Positions 1-10,642 of a DNA stretch of 16,773 bases are shown in pieces. The DNA is from Amoeboradix gromovi X-113 (Eukaryota; Fungi; Sanchytriomycota): positions 1-16,773 of the forward strand of contig JADGIF010000153.1 in the NCBI GenBank assembly GCA_018985225.1, read 5' to 3'. The first letter of the stretch is position 1; every line of letters begins with the position of its first letter. Under the pieces are notes generated by a model, which did no database searches, was not told the DNA's origin, and saw only the letters and a program-made list of their open reading frames with translations. Made by a program: the position numbers and the translations under genes.

Positions 1-180
1 CCAAGTTGTCTACACTTGAGAAGTGTGGGGTTTGAAATCTTCATGATTTTCGAATTCTTCACATTTAACGTAGGCGAATACCAAGGGCATAAATGCATTA
101 GAAACACTCGGGGTCTCCAAATGAAAATTTCAACATTTTTTGTCAAGCAGGATCCATGCTTAGTTGTATTTTACGGTGGT

Positions 181-1329
181 ATGGTAAGATGTCCTATATG
201 TCTAGACGACGTTTTGTTGGCACCAGTTATATTAAAATGCCGTCATGTTTGCTGTTTACCCTGTGCTCTAAGAATGGTATACTCACCATTTCTTACGATT
301 CCTAGGATATCATTCAAAAAAATTGAAGATATATCAGTGTATACACTTAGGCCGGTTATTCAAGACCTGGTTGATTCTATAATTGATACCAGTTTACCTT
401 TGAGAGTTAGCATGGACTCGAATAGTCTTGAAGTGCCGGCAAGCAATAAGTCATTCAATTGTCCTATATGTTCTGCCTTTGGTAAAGCTCAAGATCTGCT
501 ACCAGCAGAAATTCGTCATATGAAAGAGGACCATCGCCAAATTCATCATTCGAAAGGCACAAAATCTATTAAAATACATTCCGATTTGCCGTTTTACGAG
601 TATTTGGTATCTTGTGGACCATTATATGGCACCAGATTTGCTGACTTTTGTGACAACGGTATAATCGATGCTTTGGATTTAAACAAAATTTATTCTTCCT
701 ATTCTGAGAACATAAAAAGCGCTTTTGATGGCGTAGTAAAAGATATTGCAGACCGCATTTATATAGAGATGGATAAAAGGCTGTCCATGAGTACACCTGA
801 AGTAATAGATAATGTGGATAGTGAGTCAGAATCTTGGGCATCAGTTGCAAAAAAAGAATTGCTAGTCGATGTTACCGAGTTAGACATATCTATTGAAGGG
901 ATATTAAAGGATCTCATGTCTAATCAAGATAACATTCTGTACTCTTCCGTTATCGCCTGCGTGTTCTACTCATTTGCGATCAAGTTTTGCCAGCTGAGAA
1001 TGAAATCTGCGGGCGATGAATTGGTTGATCGAATTAAAAACAATGATTTTGCCGTAGCAGACGATGAAGATTTGGAATTTGGATATTCTTGCATCGATTC
1101 AGTTATTGGACTAGACGATATGGCTTTGCTGATGAATATGTATAATTCCGCCCCACCAAAGGTGCTATCAGTTAAAGGTCATGTCTTAGTCTCGGAAAAC
1201 AAAAGAATTTTGATTATGCATTCAGTGGAAGATCAACTGTTTGAAACTACATTTAAAGATGAAGTTGAATCTCCGAGAATGTTAAGACAATTAAGTGAAC
1301 TAATTGAAGCGCAATTAAAAGTAAAGTGA
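181..1329 (+). CDS. RING-HC (C3HC4) zinc-finger protein, putative E3 ubiquitin ligase
   Basis: From ATG 181: CPIC-x12-C-x-H-x2-C-x2-C (CPICLDDVLLAPVILKCRHVCCLPC), then about 65 aa, then FNCPIC. The ORF track starts at TTG 16; ATG 181 directly precedes the RING and is more likely, though ATG 43 and 121 are possible. The C-terminal part is not recognised. Confidence 0.65.
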   Translation: MVRCPICLDDVLLAPVILKCRHVCCLPCALRMVYSPFLTIPRISFKKIEDISVYTLRPVIQDLVDSIIDTSLPLRVSMDSNSLEVPASNKSFNCPICSAFGKAQDLLPAEIRHMKEDHRQIHHSKGTKSIKIHSDLPFYEYLVSCGPLYGTRFADFCDNGIIDALDLNKIYSSYSENIKSAFDGVVKDIADRIYIEMDKRLSMSTPEVIDNVDSESESWASVAKKELLVDVTELDISIEGILKDLMSNQDNILYSSVIACVFYSFAIKFCQLRMKSAGDELVDRIKNNDFAVADDEDLEFGYSCIDSVIGLDDMALLMNMYNSAPPKVLSVKGHVLVSENKRILIMHSVEDQLFETTFKDEVESPRMLRQLSELIEAQLKVK

Positions 1330-1387
1330 CTTCCTCGTAAATATTTTATTTTATATCTCCACGTTTTAGTTGCTGACCAAGGATAAA

Positions 1388-2690
1388 ATGTCCGAGACTC
1401 CTAAAAGAAAAAATAAACCTCCTGAACTGAATGATGTAATGAAGACACCAGTTAAGAAGAAGAGGAGGGTTGAGGATGATAGCAGTGAAATTAAAAAAGA
1501 TGTTTATGTTACACCTACTAAAGATAGAATGATACCCAGCAGATTAAACAAATCTATATATACCAGCGTGCTATTTCAAAGCAATAGGTTGAAAGCACCT
1601 CGCAATACAAATAGTAAGAAATTTATTCGCCAACCACCTCATTTGAACAAGGATGTAATAGTAGACAGATTAAGACATTCGAAGGTCCCCATTAAGCAAT
1701 ATCAGCTAGACGATATAATGGATGATTATTATCTTAATGTCCTGGACTGGTCTGCCAAAGGACTGATAGGAATAGGATTGACTAATAACTTGTATGTCCT
1801 GGATCCATCCAACGATCTCAACTACAAGTTCTATTCATGTGAAAACGATCACATAACTGGTATTAAATACAACCCATCTGGTGCGTTTATAGGTATAGGA
1901 ACTCATTTAGGTAATCTAGCTTACAAGGACTTGAATTCTGGAGTTTCCACCAATTCTACTAATGTAGCAAATCTGTCTCAAAGAATTGGATGCATGGACT
2001 GGAAATCAGACAGCGTAGTAGCAGTTGGATGTAGAGATAAAAACGTGTATATTTATGATATTAACAGCAATAACAGGGCATTTAAATTGGATAAGCATAA
2101 GCAAGAAATTTGCGGAATAGCGTTCAACAGCACCGGAACCCACCTGGCAACTGGTGGAAATGACAATGTTTTTATGGTTTGGGATCTAAGGCATTCCACT
2201 CACCCAGTGTATACTAATGAACATAATGCTGCAGTTAAGGCTGTTTCGTGGTCACCAAACAAGGTATTACTTACTAATCCAGCCAAACATACTAGCTACA
2301 GGCGGTGGAACAGCCGATAAGTGTCTTAAAGTTTGGGATATAAATCAGCCCAAGTGTTTGGTTAACATTGATACATCCTCGCAAGTATGCAATATATTAT
2401 GGTCAAAGAATTCAACAGAGATCTGTAGCACGCATGGATATTCCCAGAACATGATGCACGTCTGGAAATACTCCGATTCGAATTCTTCTGTTGATTTTGG
2501 CCTGTTTGAACAGTCTTCATTTACACTAGATCAACTATTCGCATTCCAAGCACATACAAGTAGAGTTCTGTATGCAGCTTTGGGACCGGACAATGAGACT
2601 GTTTGCACAGCGGCAGCGGATATGCATCTTAAATGCTGGAAAGTATTTCAGCAACAAAAATCTGTGAATCCTACTCGCTTGATGCGCTAG
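1388..2690 (+). CDS. CDH1: APC/C activator Cdh1/Fzr1 (Cdc20/Fizzy family WD40 protein); join(1388..2263,2283..2690)
   Basis: C-box DRMIPSR, DDYYLNVLDWS, HKQEICG, EHNAAVKAVSWSP, LATGGGTAD, SQVCNILWSK..EICSTHGYSQN, HTSRVLY, and a C-terminal MR (IR-tail variant). ORFs 1370..2320 and 2217..2690 join in frame after removing 2264..2282 (WSPNK|PNILATGGG). STHGYSQN and DTxSQVCN favour Cdh1 over Cdc20. Confidence 0.88.
2264..2282 (+). other. 19-nt spliceosomal intron (GTATTACTTACTAATCCAG)
   Basis: GT...AG with a TACTAAT branch-like motif. Its removal restores the conserved WD40 reading frame exactly. Confidence 0.88.
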
Positions 2691-2752
2691 TAAATAGTTT
2701 TCCTGTTTCTTTTCGTTTGAAAGAGGGTATTTTTTACTCCCTCAAACATTAC

Positions 2753-4526
2753 ATGATTTGTCTGGTTTTGGATCAATCGATAGCAAACAGAAATGCTAAC
2801 CAGTGCATTGTCCCAATTTTGAACAGTGTATTACAAGCAGGTAACGTAAGTATGAGTACTCCATGTCTTTTAATACCGTATCACAGTCAAAACACGAGCG
2901 TTTATTCAAAATCAACATTAGGTGATAGTATCCAAAAAATAGCGTCTCTGAAATATGATCATTTAAACCCTATGGTGAACTCGCTATTGGATGCAATGTA
3001 TTTAGCATACACAAGTTTAAAACAATCTGATTCTAAGCATATCATCATTTTGTGCAGTACTTTGTATATAGATGGCTTCGCCAATCCTAATCCCTCAAAA
3101 AACATCTCCAATATGGCTTCAATGCTAGATACGCTGAAATCGGAGAACATTTCAGTTTCTGTATTATGTAAAAAGGGATTAAAACCCATTGAAGAGTTGT
3201 CTAAAAATGGTTGGAGAAGTAGCAATCCCAATTATTCTGTTATATTTGACAAATCTTTCGTTCCTGAGATTCCACATTTAACTACTTCTACAAATATTCC
3301 AGCTTCTGTTACTTTTGGCAATCAGCAGCAATCCCCTCCACAACATCAGGTACATCAACAAACGCAACAGCCTATACAGCAGCAAATACAGCAGCCTATG
3401 CAGCAATCAATTCCTAATGGCATGAATATGGTTCCTGTTGACTACTATCCTCCACCACCGACTGATGCTGCTTTGTGGTCTGGTCAGTTACAAATGAATG
3501 AAATAGTTGCTCCTGTTATTGCCACTCCGATATCTAAGCATGATGTTCCTCAATTGTATTTTTAACTAATTTAGCAACTGTCAAATCTGGCCACATACTC
3601 TGAGTATTTTTGGATTGTATACGGTTAACATCCATACTTTGCAAGGATATGTGCAATCTAATCATATTCCTATTGTTTCTTTTGAAGATCAGCAACCCAC
3701 ACCTCAATTTGACTCCATCAAACGTTCTTTGCAAGAGCAACGAAAAGTTGCTGTTATTAAGCAAGACCAGTATCACGGATTTTGTATATTTATGAACAAT
3801 AACAGGTTACTGGGGTTGGTAATGATTAAATCTCAGTTCCCACCGGATATTCTGCAATGCTTGGGTTACACTTCGCCTGCTCAACAGCCGATGGGAATGC
3901 AAATGCCCATCAGCGTGTCCCCTCCTAGTGTAGCTACTCCTGCCAGTGTGCAGCATACGCCTAACCAGCAAGCGGCAATTTCCACAACACCTCAGCAATT
4001 ACCTCAACAGCCAACACCCGGACAACAGCAGCCTCAACCAATACATCATCAGCAACAGATTCCACAGCAGCCGATGGGGAGTCCACACTTGTATGGACAA
4101 CAGCCTCAACAAGCTCAGCAGCCGATGGGAAGCCCACAAATTAGAGGAGGGCCAATACCTCAACAGTTTCAACAGCAGTACAGGAATGTACCTGCACCTC
4201 AACAACAGCATCAGTATAGAAACATGCCAATCTATAATCCCTATATGCAACAGCCTCCACGTGGGATGCAATTTAGAACGCCTTATGGAATGATGCAGTA
4301 TCCTATGATGATGCAACCACAAATGGGAATGCAACAGATACCACCACAGATGATGCAGCAACAGCAGCAAATATCGCAACCGCAAAGGCCACAGCAACCA
4401 AACATGTCTCCAGGAATGCCACAACAAATGCCTATGAATAACCAACAAATGCCACCTAATATGCAATATATGCCGCAGCAGTACTATCAACAAGGGATGC
4501 AGCCACAGTATAGAAGACCGCAGTAG
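2753..4526 (+). CDS. MED25: Mediator subunit 25 (MED25/PFT1)-like protein: VWA domain + ACID/PTOV-like domain + Q/P/M-rich tail; join(2753..3555,3575..4526)
   Basis: N-terminal VWA-like strands (MICLVLDQS, SLLDAMYLAY, KHIIILCS, ENISVSVLC). After splicing: LWSGQLQM ... IWPHTLSIFGL ... EQRKVAVIKQ ... NNRLLGLVM, resembling the MED25 ACID domain. Then a long Gln/Pro/Met-rich tail. Two ORFs join via the 19-nt intron 3556..3574. Confidence 0.65.
3556..3574 (+). other. 19-nt spliceosomal intron (GTATTTTTAACTAATTTAG)
   Basis: GT...AG with an ACTAAT branch-like motif, and it contains the in-frame TAA. Removal gives PQ-F-NCQIWPHTL in frame with ORF 3615..4526. Confidence 0.85.
3880..4523 (+). repeat. 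Low-complexity Gln/Pro/Met-rich coding tract with repeated QQPMG(SP) units
   Basis: CAGCCGATGGG recurs near 3885, 4068 and 4119; CAA/CAG-rich codons. Confidence 0.8.
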
Positions 4527-4625
4527 ACTAGCCTTATTTTAAAATAAATGCATTACAGTTTTATTCTTATTGTCCGGTTTATGTTCTTTACATTATTAAT
4601 TTTAACTTTTGAAACAACAAAGGCA

Positions 4626-5390
4626 ATGCAGTGGAAAGCATGGGAAGAAGTGTCTGATTTAGGAATACAGGCGTTGGCTGTATTCACTGTAGTAGCATTT
4701 ACCGGGGTAGCTATGAGGAAGAAGAACAGTTATTATAAAAGGTATGCCACAATAGATGACTTACATCCTAAATATTTAAAAAAAACTCACTTGTTACGAG
4801 GATATGGATTAACAATAAGAGATGGTGACAATTTTAGGTTTTACCACACTACTGAAATACAGCAACTGTACTGGCTGCTAAGTGGAAAAAGGGACTTGAA
4901 ATACGCAACATTTACAACAGAGGATATCAAAATAAGGAGAAAGGAAGGAACAATTGCGATAAGGCTAGCAGGAATCGACGCTCCTGAATCTGCACACTTT
5001 GGAATGACTGCCCAGCCTTTTTCAAAAGAGGCCACTGAGTATTTGAAAAAACTGCTACAGGTTGATAACGGCCTGAATACCAAATGTAGAAGATTAATGA
5101 TAGAACCGCTTAAGAGAGATCAATATGGAAGATTAGTCAGCATGGTTTACTACCAGCCAATACCTTTCTTACCCTGGTATAGGAACATTTCAGAAGAGAT
5201 GATAAAGCTAGGACTGGCAGTAGTCTATACAGCAGCTGGTGCAGAGTATGGGAAGCTTGAAGAAAGACTCTTAAGATTAGAAAAGAAAGCCCAGAAGAAA
5301 AAAAAGGGTATTTGGGGTCTTCAAAATTTTGTGAGTCCTGGAATGCACAAGGAACTGTTTAAGACAGGGAAGCAAGTTATTCGGCAATGA
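4626..5390 (+). CDS. LCL3: LCL3-like staphylococcal-nuclease (SNase) family endonuclease with N-terminal TM segment
   Basis: DGDNFRFYHT, TIAIRLAGIDAPESAHFG, QPFSKEA, DQYGRLV, EMIKLGLAVVY, AEYG, KKKGIW. ATG 4626 is preferred; in-frame ATGs at 4548 and 4581 lie in an AT-rich stretch. Confidence 0.88.
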   Translation: MQWKAWEEVSDLGIQALAVFTVVAFTGVAMRKKNSYYKRYATIDDLHPKYLKKTHLLRGYGLTIRDGDNFRFYHTTEIQQLYWLLSGKRDLKYATFTTEDIKIRRKEGTIAIRLAGIDAPESAHFGMTAQPFSKEATEYLKKLLQVDNGLNTKCRRLMIEPLKRDQYGRLVSMVYYQPIPFLPWYRNISEEMIKLGLAVVYTAAGAEYGKLEERLLRLEKKAQKKKKGIWGLQNFVSPGMHKELFKTGKQVIRQ

Positions 5391-5399
5391 ATAAATAAT

Positions 5400-6212
5400 T
5401 TACTTCAAGAAATCGATGTAATCTTTGATTATTAAATGCAGGAATTTGGGCTTGCACTTTAATGCCTCACTAATGGATGTCATGCACAAACCAATTTGTT
5501 TGGCTTCTAAAATGCTATCTAATGGAGCCTCTTCGAACCCTATGTTTATGCTAGAGTCTTTGGAAGCTTTTAGATCAGATGCCTCCAGTTTTGACAACGA
5601 TGAACAATCAACCTCTCTGATAGCTGACTCCAAATTTGATTTCTGAAGGAGTAGCGAATCTACGTGAGAGATCCAGCTAGAAACAGTTAAACAGGAAGAC
5701 TGAGGATCCATTCTAAGCGTCTGATCTAGAACATGCTCCAACTCTTTTTTAGTTTGACACTCAGCTGTGACTTTAGCCAAGTCAATTTTTTGTTTTTCAG
5801 TTTCTAAAATTAGTTCAGCTATTCTATCCTCTACCAATATTCTTGCCTTGACGTCATCCTCTGACTTTTTGTTAGATCTCTTCATTTTGAGTCTGTTTTC
5901 CTCAATAAATTTGGAAAACCTATCTTTGTGTTCGAAATATTTTTGCTTTTCCACAAAAAATGATACTTTGAGTTTTTCTTTCGAAACCAGCCATTTTGAA
6001 TGGTTTGTTTGTGCCTCTATTAGCTTTCTTTGGAAATCTAACTGTTGTTCTTGAACATCAAACAAATAAGTGTCTTGAATTGATGCAATGTTGTTATTTA
6101 ATAGAATTGGCTGCATAGGAAACTCGTAAGACCCATTAACATATGCCTTTATTGGTTCCAGTTGGATCTTGCCCCCCCTTTGGGTAATAAAGATATCTTT
6201 GCCATCTTCCAT
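5400..6212 (-). CDS. Coiled-coil DUF4200 protein (CCDC42/CFAP73/CFAP100-like, cilia/flagella-associated)
   Basis: 270-aa coiled-coil ORF containing RFSKFIEENRLKMKRSNKKSEDD, similar to the DUF4200 signature KFLxENxxKxxRAxKKAxxE. Confidence 0.55.
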   Translation of the reverse strand: MEDGKDIFITQRGGKIQLEPIKAYVNGSYEFPMQPILLNNNIASIQDTYLFDVQEQQLDFQRKLIEAQTNHSKWLVSKEKLKVSFFVEKQKYFEHKDRFSKFIEENRLKMKRSNKKSEDDVKARILVEDRIAELILETEKQKIDLAKVTAECQTKKELEHVLDQTLRMDPQSSCLTVSSWISHVDSLLLQKSNLESAIREVDCSSLSKLEASDLKASKDSSINIGFEEAPLDSILEAKQIGLCMTSISEALKCKPKFLHLIIKDYIDFLK

Positions 6213-6344
6213 TTTATATGAAACTTATCTTCGCTGTTTGAAAGACGCAAACAGGAAACATTAAATTTAACCCTAGAGAAGTGAAATAAATTTGTCTTAC
6301 AGGTGAAAGATTAAAAATTAACTTAATGAAATTCCGTGTGACAC
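6213..6344. promoter_or_regulatory. Putative bidirectional promoter (132 bp) between the divergent DUF4200 and GPN1 genes
   Basis: The two ATGs point away from each other across a short AT-rich spacer. Inferred from geometry only. Confidence 0.5.
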
Positions 6345-7190
6345 ATGAATTCGCAACAAAAAGAGGACACTCACGTAATTATAGTCATCGGAATGGCAGC
6401 AGCAGGCAAGTCGGCTACTGTCAAAGCGTTAAAGCGCTTAAATCCCTACACCATAAATTTAGATCCTGCAGTTCTCGACACTCCATACACGTGTAATATC
6501 GACATTAGAGATACAATTGATTACATGAAGTTAATGGAGGACTATTCATTGGGACCCAACGGTGCCATAATGACCTCTTTAAATTTGCTTTGCACTAAAT
6601 TTCATGACATTATTGCTCTCATTGATAAAAGAAATCCAAAATATGTTGTAGTTGACACTCCTGGTCAGATTGAGGCATTTACATGGTCAGCTAGTGGTCA
6701 AATTATTATGGAAACATTGGCTTCTAAGTTTCCTGTATCAATAGTGTATGTCGTGGACAGTGTTAAATGTGATAATCCCGTTTCTTTCATGTCAAATTTA
6801 GTTTATGCATGTTCTATCATGTACAAATCTCAGCTGCCTTTTGTTTTGTTTTTTAATAAATCCGACCAAACAGATACTTCAAGGCTAATAAGTTGGATGC
6901 GGGATTATGACAATTTTATGGAACACTTAATGAAATATGAAAACGACGGTAACTATGCTACAGATTTAGCAAGAAGCATGGCACTAATGCTTGAAGATTT
7001 TTATAAGGTGCTAAACGTTGCCTGCGGAAGTGCTTTGAATAATGACCTTGATAATTTGCTGGATAAGTTGGAGGAATCTAAAAATTCATTTGAAGAATAC
7101 AGAAAGATGAGAATACAGGCTGATAAGCATAGAAAAGAAAGAAAGACACATGAATTAAGTGTTAAATTAGAAGGATTGGATCTGAAATAA
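6345..7190 (+). CDS. GPN1: GPN-loop GTPase 1 (GPN1/XAB1/Npa3)
   Basis: GMAAAGKS P-loop, NLDPAV, IDIRDT, LGPNGAIMTSLNL, DTPGQIEAFTWSASG, FMSNLVYACSIMYK, NKSD. Confidence 0.93.
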   Translation: MNSQQKEDTHVIIVIGMAAAGKSATVKALKRLNPYTINLDPAVLDTPYTCNIDIRDTIDYMKLMEDYSLGPNGAIMTSLNLLCTKFHDIIALIDKRNPKYVVVDTPGQIEAFTWSASGQIIMETLASKFPVSIVYVVDSVKCDNPVSFMSNLVYACSIMYKSQLPFVLFFNKSDQTDTSRLISWMRDYDNFMEHLMKYENDGNYATDLARSMALMLEDFYKVLNVACGSALNNDLDNLLDKLEESKNSFEEYRKMRIQADKHRKERKTHELSVKLEGLDLK

Positions 7191-7460: not shown

Positions 7461-8045
7461 TAAGGATGCAGATACTTGATGTATATGTTCCTTGCTGCCA
7501 TATGGTCTCTATCTATTTCCAAATGACACTGTACAGGTGTAAGTTTCTAAATTGGCTTTCTTTAGAGTACCGCACCTTGTATATGTCTGACTAGTAAATG
7601 ATTCATTACATTCGACCATCGTCTTTCCTCTTTGCTTACACTTGAACTTCAAGCGTTCTTTGAATGCGTAATGGGACATTGTAGCCAAGTTTCTTGCGAC
7701 CTTGCTCGACAAACTACTTATCATCTGGCTCGTATTGAACGATGGCAAGTAAATAAGATCGTACGTCTTTGTCAGGTAATCACATATCTTCATATGACAA
7801 TCCTCTCTAAGATTCTTTACACGCTGTATCAGTCTATACATGACCTTTTTATACTTGCGCTTCTTTTTTGATCGTGTTATTTTTGATTGTACTTTGTCGA
7901 TTGCGTATAAATACTTTTTGATATGATGGAATTCATGTGAGCAAAACTCCTAGATATTTTCACTGTCGTATCCCGTCAAAAACTTTCGTACACCTGGATC
8001 TAATGCAATCACTTTTTCAATTATCTTTGGTTCTTCACATTTAAA
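7349..8045 (-). pseudogene. Fanzor2/TnpB RuvC nuclease pseudogene A (5'-truncated, one in-frame TAG, one frameshift)
   Basis: ORFs 7950..8366 and 7509..7841 share a frame, separated only by TAG 7952-7950: VIALDPGVRKFLTGYDSENI*EFCSHEFHHIKKYLYAIDKVQSKITRSKKKRKYKKVMYRLIQRVKNLREDCHMKICDYLTKTYDLIYLPSFNTSQM...SHYAFKERL...VECNESFTSQTYTRCG...YTCT. A frameshift near 7529 then gives CHLEIDRDHMAARNI (RuvC-III), running to TAA at 7351-7349. Confidence 0.9.
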
Positions 8046-8240
8046 CAAGTCTGTAAGAGCATACAAGTTCACATTGTGGTTCTCAATGAAGGCGACAAAG
8101 ATAAGGGAGAAGAGCTCAAAGACGACCTCTTCGCGGTCTGCACTTGCTTCATTGCGCAAGCACATGGAAGAAAAAGTCCTGGAAAAAGATGCGAATGCCA
8201 AGGAAGAAATTCTGATGGAGAAAAAGCTCAAGAGAGTTAA
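8040..8240 (+). pseudogene. tnpA: C-terminal fragment of an IS607-type serine recombinase (TnpA)
   Basis: A frame not in the ORF track reads FKQVCKSIQVHIVVLNEGDKDKGEELKDDLFAVCTCFIAQAHGRKSPGK...*, matching the IS607 TnpA tail pattern IVVLN...EELxxDLhxIhxxFxxRLYGxRS. It overlaps the start of the downstream Fanzor, as in IS607. The N-terminal HTH and catalytic Ser are missing. Confidence 0.72.
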
Positions 8241-8722
8241 GCGCGAAGAGGCAGATCGAAAAGGGATCTTGAAGATACGTGGTCCTGAATTTTTTAGGCC
8301 AGCTCTGGAAGGTGAGAACGCTACTGGTATCACACTCCAGAAGTTAAGAAACCTTTCAAGATGCAAGACGCTATATGCCTTGAGGATAAGCCATGGGTGT
8401 TAATACACCGGAAATGATATGCGACGAAGCCCTGACTGAGTTGGTAGTCAAGCACAAGGAACAACTCTTCAAAAGTAGGAAGGCTACATACCGCCAGGAA
8501 GAATATTCCAGAGGTAGCCGGTACTATCATTATTTCAAAGACAAGGTTGGGAAAGTCTTACCTCCATAGATGTTCAAGGGTGCGGAAACAAACCATCCAA
8601 GAAGATCAAGGCTATTGCTCTAAATCCAGGTGTCCGGAAGTCTCTTGCACGATATAATGGGGAAGGTGATCGAGATCGATGATAGAGACCTGAATGTCAT
8701 AACAAAGGTGCTTGTTAAGACA
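8164..8722 (+). pseudogene. Fanzor2/TnpB pseudogene B (multiple frameshifts and deletions; RuvC-II/III deleted)
   Basis: Across frames: K/R-rich N-terminus MEEKVLEK...KKLKRVKR...ILKIR, PWV-NTPEMICDEAL, LFKSRK, IIISKTRLGKSYL, KIKAIALNPGVRKSLARYNG (8611-8660; D-to-N form of IALDPGVRKFLTGYD), GKVIEI. Confidence 0.8.
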
Positions 8723-8951: not shown

Positions 8952-10562
8952 TTACTTTTCAATCACTCTTTTAATATCCTCATATCCTATCAGGACCACA
9001 TCTTGTATTTTTTCATTCAACAAATAGGTATTTCTTGCCAATTCTAAACTATCATCAGTCACCTTTTGGGTCGTGATGAAATAAAATTTACCCAATGTGT
9101 AGTCTGTGTATTTTTTTTTGATTTTCTGCCAATTTCGAGCAGCCTTGGTTAAAATATCCTTCATATTTCTTGCTTGCTTATTTGTCATCGCCGCAATGTT
9201 ATCATCATCAATTTTGTGCTCTAAAGGTATCTTTCCATTATATCCATCAGTCCATCTTTTTTTTTTATCACCACATTTTATTTGAATAATGTGAATTTTC
9301 CTTTCGTTGACAACAAATCCATCCATGTCGTTATCTTCGGCACCCGTAATTTGGTAAACGCCATCAACTAGTTCTGTACCTTCTTGTTCACGATACTCGC
9401 CTATTTGTAAATCGTCAGAGTGCTTTAAGATTACAGATTCCATATAGTGACCCAGTGAAGTAAATTTCTTTTCAGTCAACAAATTAAAGACCAAGAAATC
9501 CAAATAATCACTTTTCAATTTAAAATAATTCACTATATACGTGATTGTAAATGGCAACAGCAATTGTAATTCCTGTATACCGGAAGAATGAAAAAAGTAC
9601 GACTCTTGATATTCAGAAATGCATGCGTAAAACTCGCCTGGGAGAGACTGGCTAGTAAACAATTCTGCCCATTTTAGAGTTATAATCGATAACGGATTGC
9701 TATCGTCATATTTCAGATAAAACATGGTTAAAATTGAAGCCAAGGTATCATTTTTATTGATATAAGTCCCAAAGTCTTTTTCGGAAATACACTCATCATT
9801 AACCGAATTCATGTATCTGGGAATGCCACCTGTTTTCCAAAGAATATCAGCAGCAGCACCTAAAGCGACTCCGCAATAATTTGCTATTTGGTTTGCCTCT
9901 CTCAATGGATAAACGTATTTCCTTGTATATACTGTGTTGTTCAAATTGGCGTAATCAGGTTTATCACTAAATGCATATTTGTCCAGTTTGTATGAGCTAC
10001 TGGATATGAACCCCAGCACGGTTGTAGATTTGCCAATGACATACAACTGGTAGATGATTTCTTGGCTAGATGTTTTGTCGTTTAACTCATAAACATGATG
10101 AATTTCATCTGCAAAGAAAAACAGTCTGAAGCCTTGAGCTCTAAGAGCTGCAAACCAGTCAAGTTTCTGATCATAGTCATCGTGTTTTAAATTGCAGCCT
10201 TTTTTCTCAAGCCAATTCTGTATTTTATCAAACGGTGAAGTTAATTTTGACAATGGCTGAGACATATCCGAGTAGAAACTCTGTGCATTTAATTTCTTTT
10301 CCTCAAAATATATGTTGAGCAGTGAATTCATATTTCTCATCAACCATGTCTTGCCTGTACCTCTAGCACCAACAATAGCATAGTTTGGTTTTTGATTTTC
10401 CTGATTTAAATTTAGCATTTTTTGAACACCATCAGAGATATCTTTAACTAGGGCTCTCACATCTTTTGTAGAGAAAAGAGGCTTTGAGCCCAGTGTTTCC
10501 CATTTAGAAACTATATGATCATTGACAGCTGAAATATGCAAATTAGATAAATCTTCTTCCAT
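8952..10562 (-). CDS. Crinkler-like (CR-type) P-loop NTPase fused to a PD-(D/E)xK restriction-endonuclease-like domain
   Basis: Walker A IVGARGTGKT, Walker B LFFFADEIH, helical-domain TGGIPRYM. C-terminal GHYMESVI ... DMDGFVV ... IHIIQIKCG ... FYFITT, an E..D..QxK REase pattern. Confidence 0.7.
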   Translation of the reverse strand: MEEDLSNLHISAVNDHIVSKWETLGSKPLFSTKDVRALVKDISDGVQKMLNLNQENQKPNYAIVGARGTGKTWLMRNMNSLLNIYFEEKKLNAQSFYSDMSQPLSKLTSPFDKIQNWLEKKGCNLKHDDYDQKLDWFAALRAQGFRLFFFADEIHHVYELNDKTSSQEIIYQLYVIGKSTTVLGFISSSSYKLDKYAFSDKPDYANLNNTVYTRKYVYPLREANQIANYCGVALGAAADILWKTGGIPRYMNSVNDECISEKDFGTYINKNDTLASILTMFYLKYDDSNPLSIITLKWAELFTSQSLPGEFYACISEYQESYFFHSSGIQELQLLLPFTITYIVNYFKLKSDYLDFLVFNLLTEKKFTSLGHYMESVILKHSDDLQIGEYREQEGTELVDGVYQITGAEDNDMDGFVVNERKIHIIQIKCGDKKKRWTDGYNGKIPLEHKIDDDNIAAMTNKQARNMKDILTKAARNWQKIKKKYTDYTLGKFYFITTQKVTDDSLELARNTYLLNEKIQDVVLIGYEDIKRVIEK

Positions 10563-10642
10563 TTTACGTGTTTGATAAAAAGTTTCAAAATACAGAGCAA
10601 ATTGGATTCACAGAGCTGTCGAGAATTTGGAATTAAAGAGCA

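Follow-up and report, generated by a model that had tools for sequence, protein, structure and literature searches.

Two 19-nucleotide inserts in a sanchytrid contig are very probably U2-type spliceosomal introns

What are the two short inserts that break the reading frames of neighbouring genes on contig JADGIF010000153.1 of Amoeboradix gromovi X-113 (16,773 nucleotides (nt), the whole of which we call the window)? An initial annotation, made from the letters of the DNA, had proposed two introns of exactly 19 nt, both of the form GTATT-N4-ACTAAT-YY-AG and each restoring a reading frame when removed, and had taken them as the mark of a fixed-length splicing mode with a reduced or altered spliceosome. 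The inserts, GTATTACTTACTAATCCAG at 2264-2282 and GTATTTTTAACTAATTTAG at 3556-3574, were read directly in the window; each is 19 nt long, each matches that pattern, and excision of either one merges two open reading frames (ORFs) into one. We conclude that both are very probably true spliceosomal introns of the U2 type and belong to a sanchytrid fungus. The first interrupts a gene for a Cdh1/Cdc20-family activator of the anaphase-promoting complex/cyclosome (APC/C), here gene 1, and the second the gene that follows it, here gene 2:

1388..2263, + strand: exon 1 of the Cdh1/Cdc20-family (fizzy-related) APC/C activator; ends ...SWSPNK; matches Pfam PF24807 model positions 5-189; homologues are named fizzy-related or CDC20
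2264..2282, + strand: probable 19-nt intron 1, phase 0; runs from a GT donor (T at +5) to a CAG acceptor, with a CTAAT branch motif whose putative branch A is 2277
2283..2690, + strand: exon 2 of gene 1 (Cdh1/Cdc20 family), with PNILATGGG at its start; matches Pfam PF24807 model positions 188-292
2753..3555, + strand: exon 1 of gene 2, likely a Med25-like Mediator subunit (a lead only), with a VWA-like N-terminus; relatives align from this Met
3556..3574, + strand: probable 19-nt intron 2, phase 2; runs from a GT donor (T at +5) to a TAG acceptor, with a CTAAT branch motif whose putative branch A is 3569
3575..4526, + strand: exon 2 of gene 2, a conserved domain and, after it, a tail rich in Q, P and M; 89% identity to residues 271-365 of the homologue P0245

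The putative branch A stands at position 14 of both inserts; 12 nt separate it from the opening G, in agreement with the initial annotation, and 5 nt follow it. The shared pattern occurs twice in the window against a mean of 0.01 in shuffled sequence, with at least two occurrences in 0 of 200 shuffles; however, the pattern was built from the two sites themselves, so that this test is not blind. A looser motif, GTR...YTVAY-N-HAG, was found 10 times at lengths of 15-30 nt against 11.2 expected by shuffling, and twice at 19 nt against 0.72 expected, with two or more in 30 of 200 shuffles. Because the looser motif is no commoner than chance, proof has to come from the reading frames and from relatives. 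When the window was scanned at 18-21 nt with a consensus derived from the relatives, four matches were obtained, and the two 19-nt sites were the only ones to join long ORFs. An 18-nt look-alike at 1893-1910 (GT...CTCAT...TAG) was rejected, as it lies in frame and encodes a GIGTHLG-like stretch that is present in the relatives.

For gene 1, the ORFs on either side of 2264 match consecutive parts of the Pfam CDC20/Fizzy WD40 family noted above. We scored 759 stop-free removals of 13 different lengths against a hidden Markov model of 115 non-sanchytrid Cdc20/Cdh1 proteins. The top score by removal length peaked at 19 nt, with 356.3 bits versus 351.1 for 16 nt, 349.3 for 22 nt and 346.3 for 1 nt. 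Removal of 2264-2282 gave 355.3 bits, less than 1 bit below the top, and adjacent 19-nt removals without splice ends scored similarly; among the six removals with GT-AG or GC-AG ends it ranks first, the next reaching 341.1. The spacing from WxP to GGG is five residues in all 80 readable homologues (of the 115) and also in the spliced window protein. Intron 1 holds no stop in either frame.

For gene 2, the first part of exon 2 served as the query of an exhaustive search, which gave four matches, including P0245, an unbroken homologue of 591 amino acids. The GT-AG 19-mer at 3556 came top of 204 stop-free removals compared with this protein, and 129 residues then align across the junction without a gap. 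Stops are present in both exon frames of intron 2 (3563-3565 and 3567-3569), and no removal of 1 or 4 nt leaves gene 2 free of stops. A global alignment of gene 2 with P0245 contains 351 identical residues over 584 and 591 amino acids, which places the two in different species. As to what gene 2 encodes, neither half gave a Pfam family at E up to 5; the ESM Atlas neighbours of P0245 are Med25 clusters at 0.84-0.88, under the 0.9 bar, and on this sub-threshold lead a Med25-like subunit is the likely identity. In public sets gene 2 (2753-4526) stands as two unknown fragments.

The spliced products of both genes are colinear with homologous proteins, as is expected of U2-type introns. U12-type introns have an RTATCCTT donor and a TCCTTAAC branch sequence; the donors here read GTATTACT and GTATTTTT, with ACTAAT at the branch, and thus depart from that class.

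By its protein matches the window is sanchytrid DNA, other than the Sanchytrium tribonematis record. The N-terminal part of Cdh1/Cdc20 is 73-79% identical to four close relatives and at most 40% to the rest among the matches listed; the Cdh1 of S. tribonematis is 73% identical, and the non-sanchytrid matches listed reach at most 40%. The window's GPN1 is 73% identical to the S. tribonematis protein and 74-83% to two further proteins, with at most 53% for the other matches listed. Among these matches the closest named orthologues of both proteins are sanchytrid.

With the exception of P0244, a gene-2 homologue, the ORFs of the relatives break at the same codon as the window genes. In four of four close Cdh1 homologues, matching ends at SWSP[NH]K and is followed by a Val (GTN). 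Back-translation regained exon 2 only by removal of a 19-nt GT-AG segment in P0122, P0123 and S. tribonematis P0124, where 10 of 11, 11 of 11 and 30 of 36 residues, respectively, are then identical. Two of the three gene-2 homologues (P0242 and S. tribonematis P0243) end seven codons past the same Leu, which corresponds to a 19-nt intron ending in TAG. If these five introns and the two in the window are all taken as 19 nt, positions G1, T2, T5, A14, Y15, Y17, A18 and G19 do not vary, all seven have or permit T12, and bases 6-11 are variable; an A at -6 and a T at +5 thus occur in seven of seven. GT...YAG ends are found in both window introns and are compatible with the other five, and the branch motif (YTNAY/CTRAY) is CTAAT in both window introns, with A14 and Y15 forced in all five from relatives. 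Since the break, the length and A14 are conserved across species, assembly error is excluded and selection on splice-type signals is shown. The T at +5 replaces the G usual in fungal donors and predicts an altered or relaxed contact with U6 or U1.

We propose that these introns would be removed by the two-step lariat route. U2 small nuclear RNA (snRNA) would pair with bases 11-15, the (Y)TNAY motif, and attack of A14 on G1 would produce a 14-nt lariat loop. The branch A would keep a constant distance of six bases to the 3′ end, and the YAG 5 nt past it could serve with neither scanning nor a polypyrimidine tract. The donor (GT, with T at +5), a spacer of about five free bases, the branch motif and the acceptor would together fill all 19 bases; as these signals leave no room to spare, the length is likely set by the minimum donor-to-branch distance plus the fixed branch-to-AG distance. 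A loss of Slu7 and Prp18 would accompany, and may permit, the 5-nt spacing between branch and 3′ site, which we offer as a lead.

Is there a spliceosome to carry this out? The inventory consisted of term searches in the eggNOG table for A. gromovi (PMC8371127, supplement 4) and covers the protein side only. The table lists Prp8, Brr2, U5-40K, Snu13, cactin and U2AF35; U1-70K, U1A/U2B'', SF1/BBP, U2AF65 and SF3B1; and Prp5, Prp22-type helicases, Yju2, Cwc25, Prp17, Prp40 and Luc7. A helicase annotated with K12815 only is likely Prp16, the name Prp16 and KOG0924 having no matches in the table. DBR1, annotated in both published sanchytrids, is compatible with lariat formation and says no more than that. 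In this partial table Slu7, Prp18 and U1C had no matches by KEGG and KOG identifiers, nor did Slu7 and Prp18 by name. We presume that the identifiers used are those of the three proteins. Yeast can dispense with Slu7 and Prp18 where the branch lies close to the 3′ site, and it has been proposed that a minimum of ~10 nt is imposed by Prp18 (PMC10711555, PMC10158995); the failure to find them fits these data. A search of the window with Rfam at E up to 0.5 gave no matches, and thus no snRNA in the window. With the major spliceosome proteins encoded, the sanchytrid spliceosome looks broadly canonical, and the reduced spliceosome of the initial annotation has weak support and would be at most partial: Slu7, Prp18 and U1C were not found, but the U1 proteins, U2AF, SF1 and the core are listed. 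The A. gromovi SF1/BBP itself appears as two ORFs on one contig (PMC8371127, supplement 4, rows 1135-1136), as a hidden intron in the gene for the branch-point-binding protein would cause.

Several points weigh against parts of this account. Splicing of both introns is inferred from sequence, reading frames and relatives rather than from RNA; a search of sequencing runs listed no RNA data set with this DNA, a result that speaks neither for nor against splicing. The introns of the relatives were deduced from ORF-called proteins that read through into them rather than from DNA, and no corresponding DNA locus was confirmed in metagenome contigs, prokaryote genome contigs or viral contigs. For the gene-2 relatives the terminal TAG, and hence A18 and G19, is assumed by the method. 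P0245, which comes from a 1,927-nt contig of another species, may derive either from a transcript already spliced or from a gene that lacks introns. The eggNOG table represents a single species, with 3,757 of its 7,220 ORF-called proteins, and short or intron-split genes would escape it; the absence of Slu7, Prp18 and U1C from it is weak, and we treat it as a lead only. The idea that loss of Slu7 and Prp18 is involved is further weakened by Yarrowia lipolytica, which shares the 3′ spacing (PMC2483917). With respect to a strict length, the sample is seven introns at only two orthologous sites. The fourth Cdh1 relative, P0125, stops within its intron, so that 15 nt or longer would both fit; its last codons would fit a branch motif one base later, and hence possibly 20 nt. 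Finally, P0244 breaks ~7 codons upstream of the window's intron. The relative that carries P0244 and P0247 has a gene 2 that lacks the first ~70 residues and whose last piece starts later, which suggests other or additional introns in that species.

Could the frames be broken without any intron? Published sanchytrid genomes were made by whole-genome amplification (PMC8371127), and the breaks might then be sequencing or assembly indels or amplification artefacts that look like GT-AG introns by chance; a 1-nt removal in gene 1 also leaves an open frame, and the loose intron motif is no rarer by chance than it is in the window. However, relatives that were assembled separately, at ~73-79% protein identity, show the same break, the 1-nt fix in gene 1 adds six residues that are present in none of 80 readable homologues, and the stops in both exon frames of the second insert mean that no single indel opens its frame. 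The 1-nt assembly indel, against which the initial annotation had set its own reading, is excluded by the shared break and by these stops, and errors of this general kind deserve practically no credence. The inserts might instead be bypassed without a spliceosome, through a programmed +1 ribosomal frameshift or hop, or through Ire1/tRNA-ligase splicing of the HAC1 type. The HAC1 intron, which is non-spliceosomal, is ~19-20 nt in some fungi and thus equal in length to those described here, and the gene 1 insert is stop-free in either frame. A simple frameshift is ruled out for the second insert by its stops in both frames. Ire1 sites follow a consensus of CNG/CNG stem-loops at both cut sites (the stroke marking the cut) with no GT-AG rule; direct reading found this motif at none of the four borders, and folding of the two regions was no better than that of shuffles (z 0.22 and 1.00). 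That seven of seven introns keep GT...YAG ends and, as part of a branch-type motif, the A at -6 also argues against any such bypass, which we regard as very improbable, if marginally less so than an indel.

A different objection accepts that the introns are spliceosomal and contests only the ruler: 19 nt may be the mode of an ordinary short distribution (for instance 15-25 nt), possibly with inefficient splicing as in microsporidia. That only two orthologous sites were sampled, that P0125 fits 15 nt or longer and that the break in P0244 lies elsewhere all favour this explanation, as does the finding that short introns of Encephalitozoon cuniculi are spliced at <20% on average (PMC6349667). Against it, bases 6-11 have diverged while 19 nt was kept in the five introns deduced in relatives, and a broad tolerated range would predict that length had drifted; we consider it unlikely, though far more deserving of attention than the two preceding explanations. 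As for the fixed length that the initial annotation had claimed, 19 nt with an A at -6 is kept in relatives including S. tribonematis, but a fixed length genome-wide is not established by these introns and by P0125. A near-fixed 19-nt length throughout the phylum is likely, resting here on the same two sites. Returning to the two inserts as U2-type introns, a wider proposal is that Sanchytriomycota splice essentially only 19-nt introns, the shortest in Fungi; that their spliceosome keeps U1, U2AF and SF1, has lost Slu7 and Prp18 (perhaps also U1C) and reads a U at +5; that two fixed distances set the intron, one of 13 nt leading from the donor G to the branch A and one of 5 nt leading on to the end; and that this represents an independent fungal convergence on the -6 geometry of the ciliate Stentor. 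We put this composite forward tentatively and would rate its chances as somewhat short of even.

If the introns are as described, the known floor for spliceosomal introns in fungi would likely be lowered from 22 nt (E. cuniculi) to 19 nt, and an independent case of tiny introns of fixed length would be added in the kingdom with the best-understood spliceosome, where yeast structures and genetics can directly test the minimum lariat (a 14-nt loop) and the role of Slu7 and Prp18. There is also a consequence for annotation. In the sanchytrid genome paper, TransDecoder was run on the contigs to call ORFs, without introns (PMC8371127), and proteomes called in this manner from genomic contigs therefore contain intron-bearing genes, such as Cdh1 and gene 2, in truncated or split form. 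The truncated proteins of the relatives in public sets bear out the warning of the initial annotation that gene finders would miss such introns, and claims of gene loss for the sanchytrid phylum may need rechecking.

The two genes belong to a compact cluster at 178-7190 with intergenic gaps of 9-132 nt, which comprises genes for a RING-like protein, Cdh1, gene 2, an SNase-domain nuclease, a coiled-coil-like ORF and GPN1; three of the cluster's orthologues share one S. tribonematis contig. Beyond it, 7509-8399 (- strand) and ~8600-8660 (+ strand) hold a TnpB/Fanzor-like remnant. The ORF at 7509-7949 matches OrfB_IS605 and Cas12f1-like_TNB, and the ORF upstream of it ends, just before its stop, in a ALDPGVRKFLTGY stretch, which we take to be a RuvC-I-like motif; a degenerate second copy of this stretch was read by eye on the opposite strand near 8615-8655. 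An intronless ORF of 551 codons at 8952-10607 (- strand) encodes a P-loop NTPase (weak AAA_22, AAA_14 and TniB matches) with a PD-(D/E)xK-like C-terminal motif, a layout that presumably resembles the NTPase-nuclease of Crinkler-type proteins.

Sanchytrids are early-branching fungi that parasitize algae, sister to Blastocladiomycota, with genomes of 10.5-11.2 Mb (PMC8371127). In the main text of that paper 'splic' occurs 0 times and 'intron' once, in the title of a reference, and a term search of the second sanchytrid paper (PMC10459994) found no discussion of introns. Spliceosomal introns of sanchytrids are not described among the literature matches listed, a scope that excludes most subscription journals and two supplementary files of PMC8371127, a spreadsheet and the main PDF. 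Nor do these matches, some represented by part of their text, contain a 19-nt spliceosomal intron from a fungus; the shortest in the fungal lineage among them is the 22-nt intron of E. cuniculi, 3 nt longer than those in the window, in line with the initial annotation's statement that they are shorter than typical fungal or microsporidian introns. The shortest animal intron medians are also 22 nt (PMC13644364).

Introns this short do exist in some ciliates and in chlorarachniophyte nucleomorphs, as the initial annotation had noted. Stentor coeruleus has 8,806 GU-AG introns of near-fixed length, 15 or 16 nt, and is reported to have all five snRNAs (PMC9505925). Its branch A, at base 10 of 15 or 11 of 16, lies at -6 from the 3′ end as in the window, and its commonest sequence has a U at +5; however, it is a ciliate, its introns are 15-16 nt and lack a strong branch consensus where those of the window carry ACTAAT, and its intron number contrasts with ~0.17 introns per coding kb in the window by a rough count. 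Mikrocytids (Mikrocytos mackini) resemble the window in being parasites with introns of uniform length and conserved sequence in gene-expression and cell-cycle genes, but are rhizarian, with introns of 16-17 nt and a strongly reduced spliceosome of 17-19 proteins in which U2, U4 and U6 were found (PMC10245619); the sanchytrid, in contrast to this reduced spliceosome, keeps U1 proteins, U2AF and SF1. The nucleomorph of Bigelowiella natans shares the length class (18-21 nt) and the GT-AG ends, but is an intron-rich endosymbiont relic whose introns have no discernible branch A (PMC6009652), whereas the window introns have a clear branch motif and belong to the main nucleus of a fungus. E. cuniculi, another holomycotan parasite, has a small number of short GT-AG introns, whose branch motif is of the CTAAY type, but these introns vary from 22 to 76 nt, begin with GTAAGT and are served by a heavily reduced spliceosome (PMC3629993, PMC6349667). 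Finally, a branch motif joined directly to the 3′ splice site has a precedent in fungi: Y. lipolytica has the identical 3′ geometry (ACTAAY, 2 nt, AG) with the same spacing and no polypyrimidine tract, but total length is unconstrained there, with a median of 204 nt in the paper's table (PMC2483917). Tiny introns of fixed length are thus already known from Stentor, mikrocytids and nucleomorphs; a length of 19 nt in a fungus is likely to be new.

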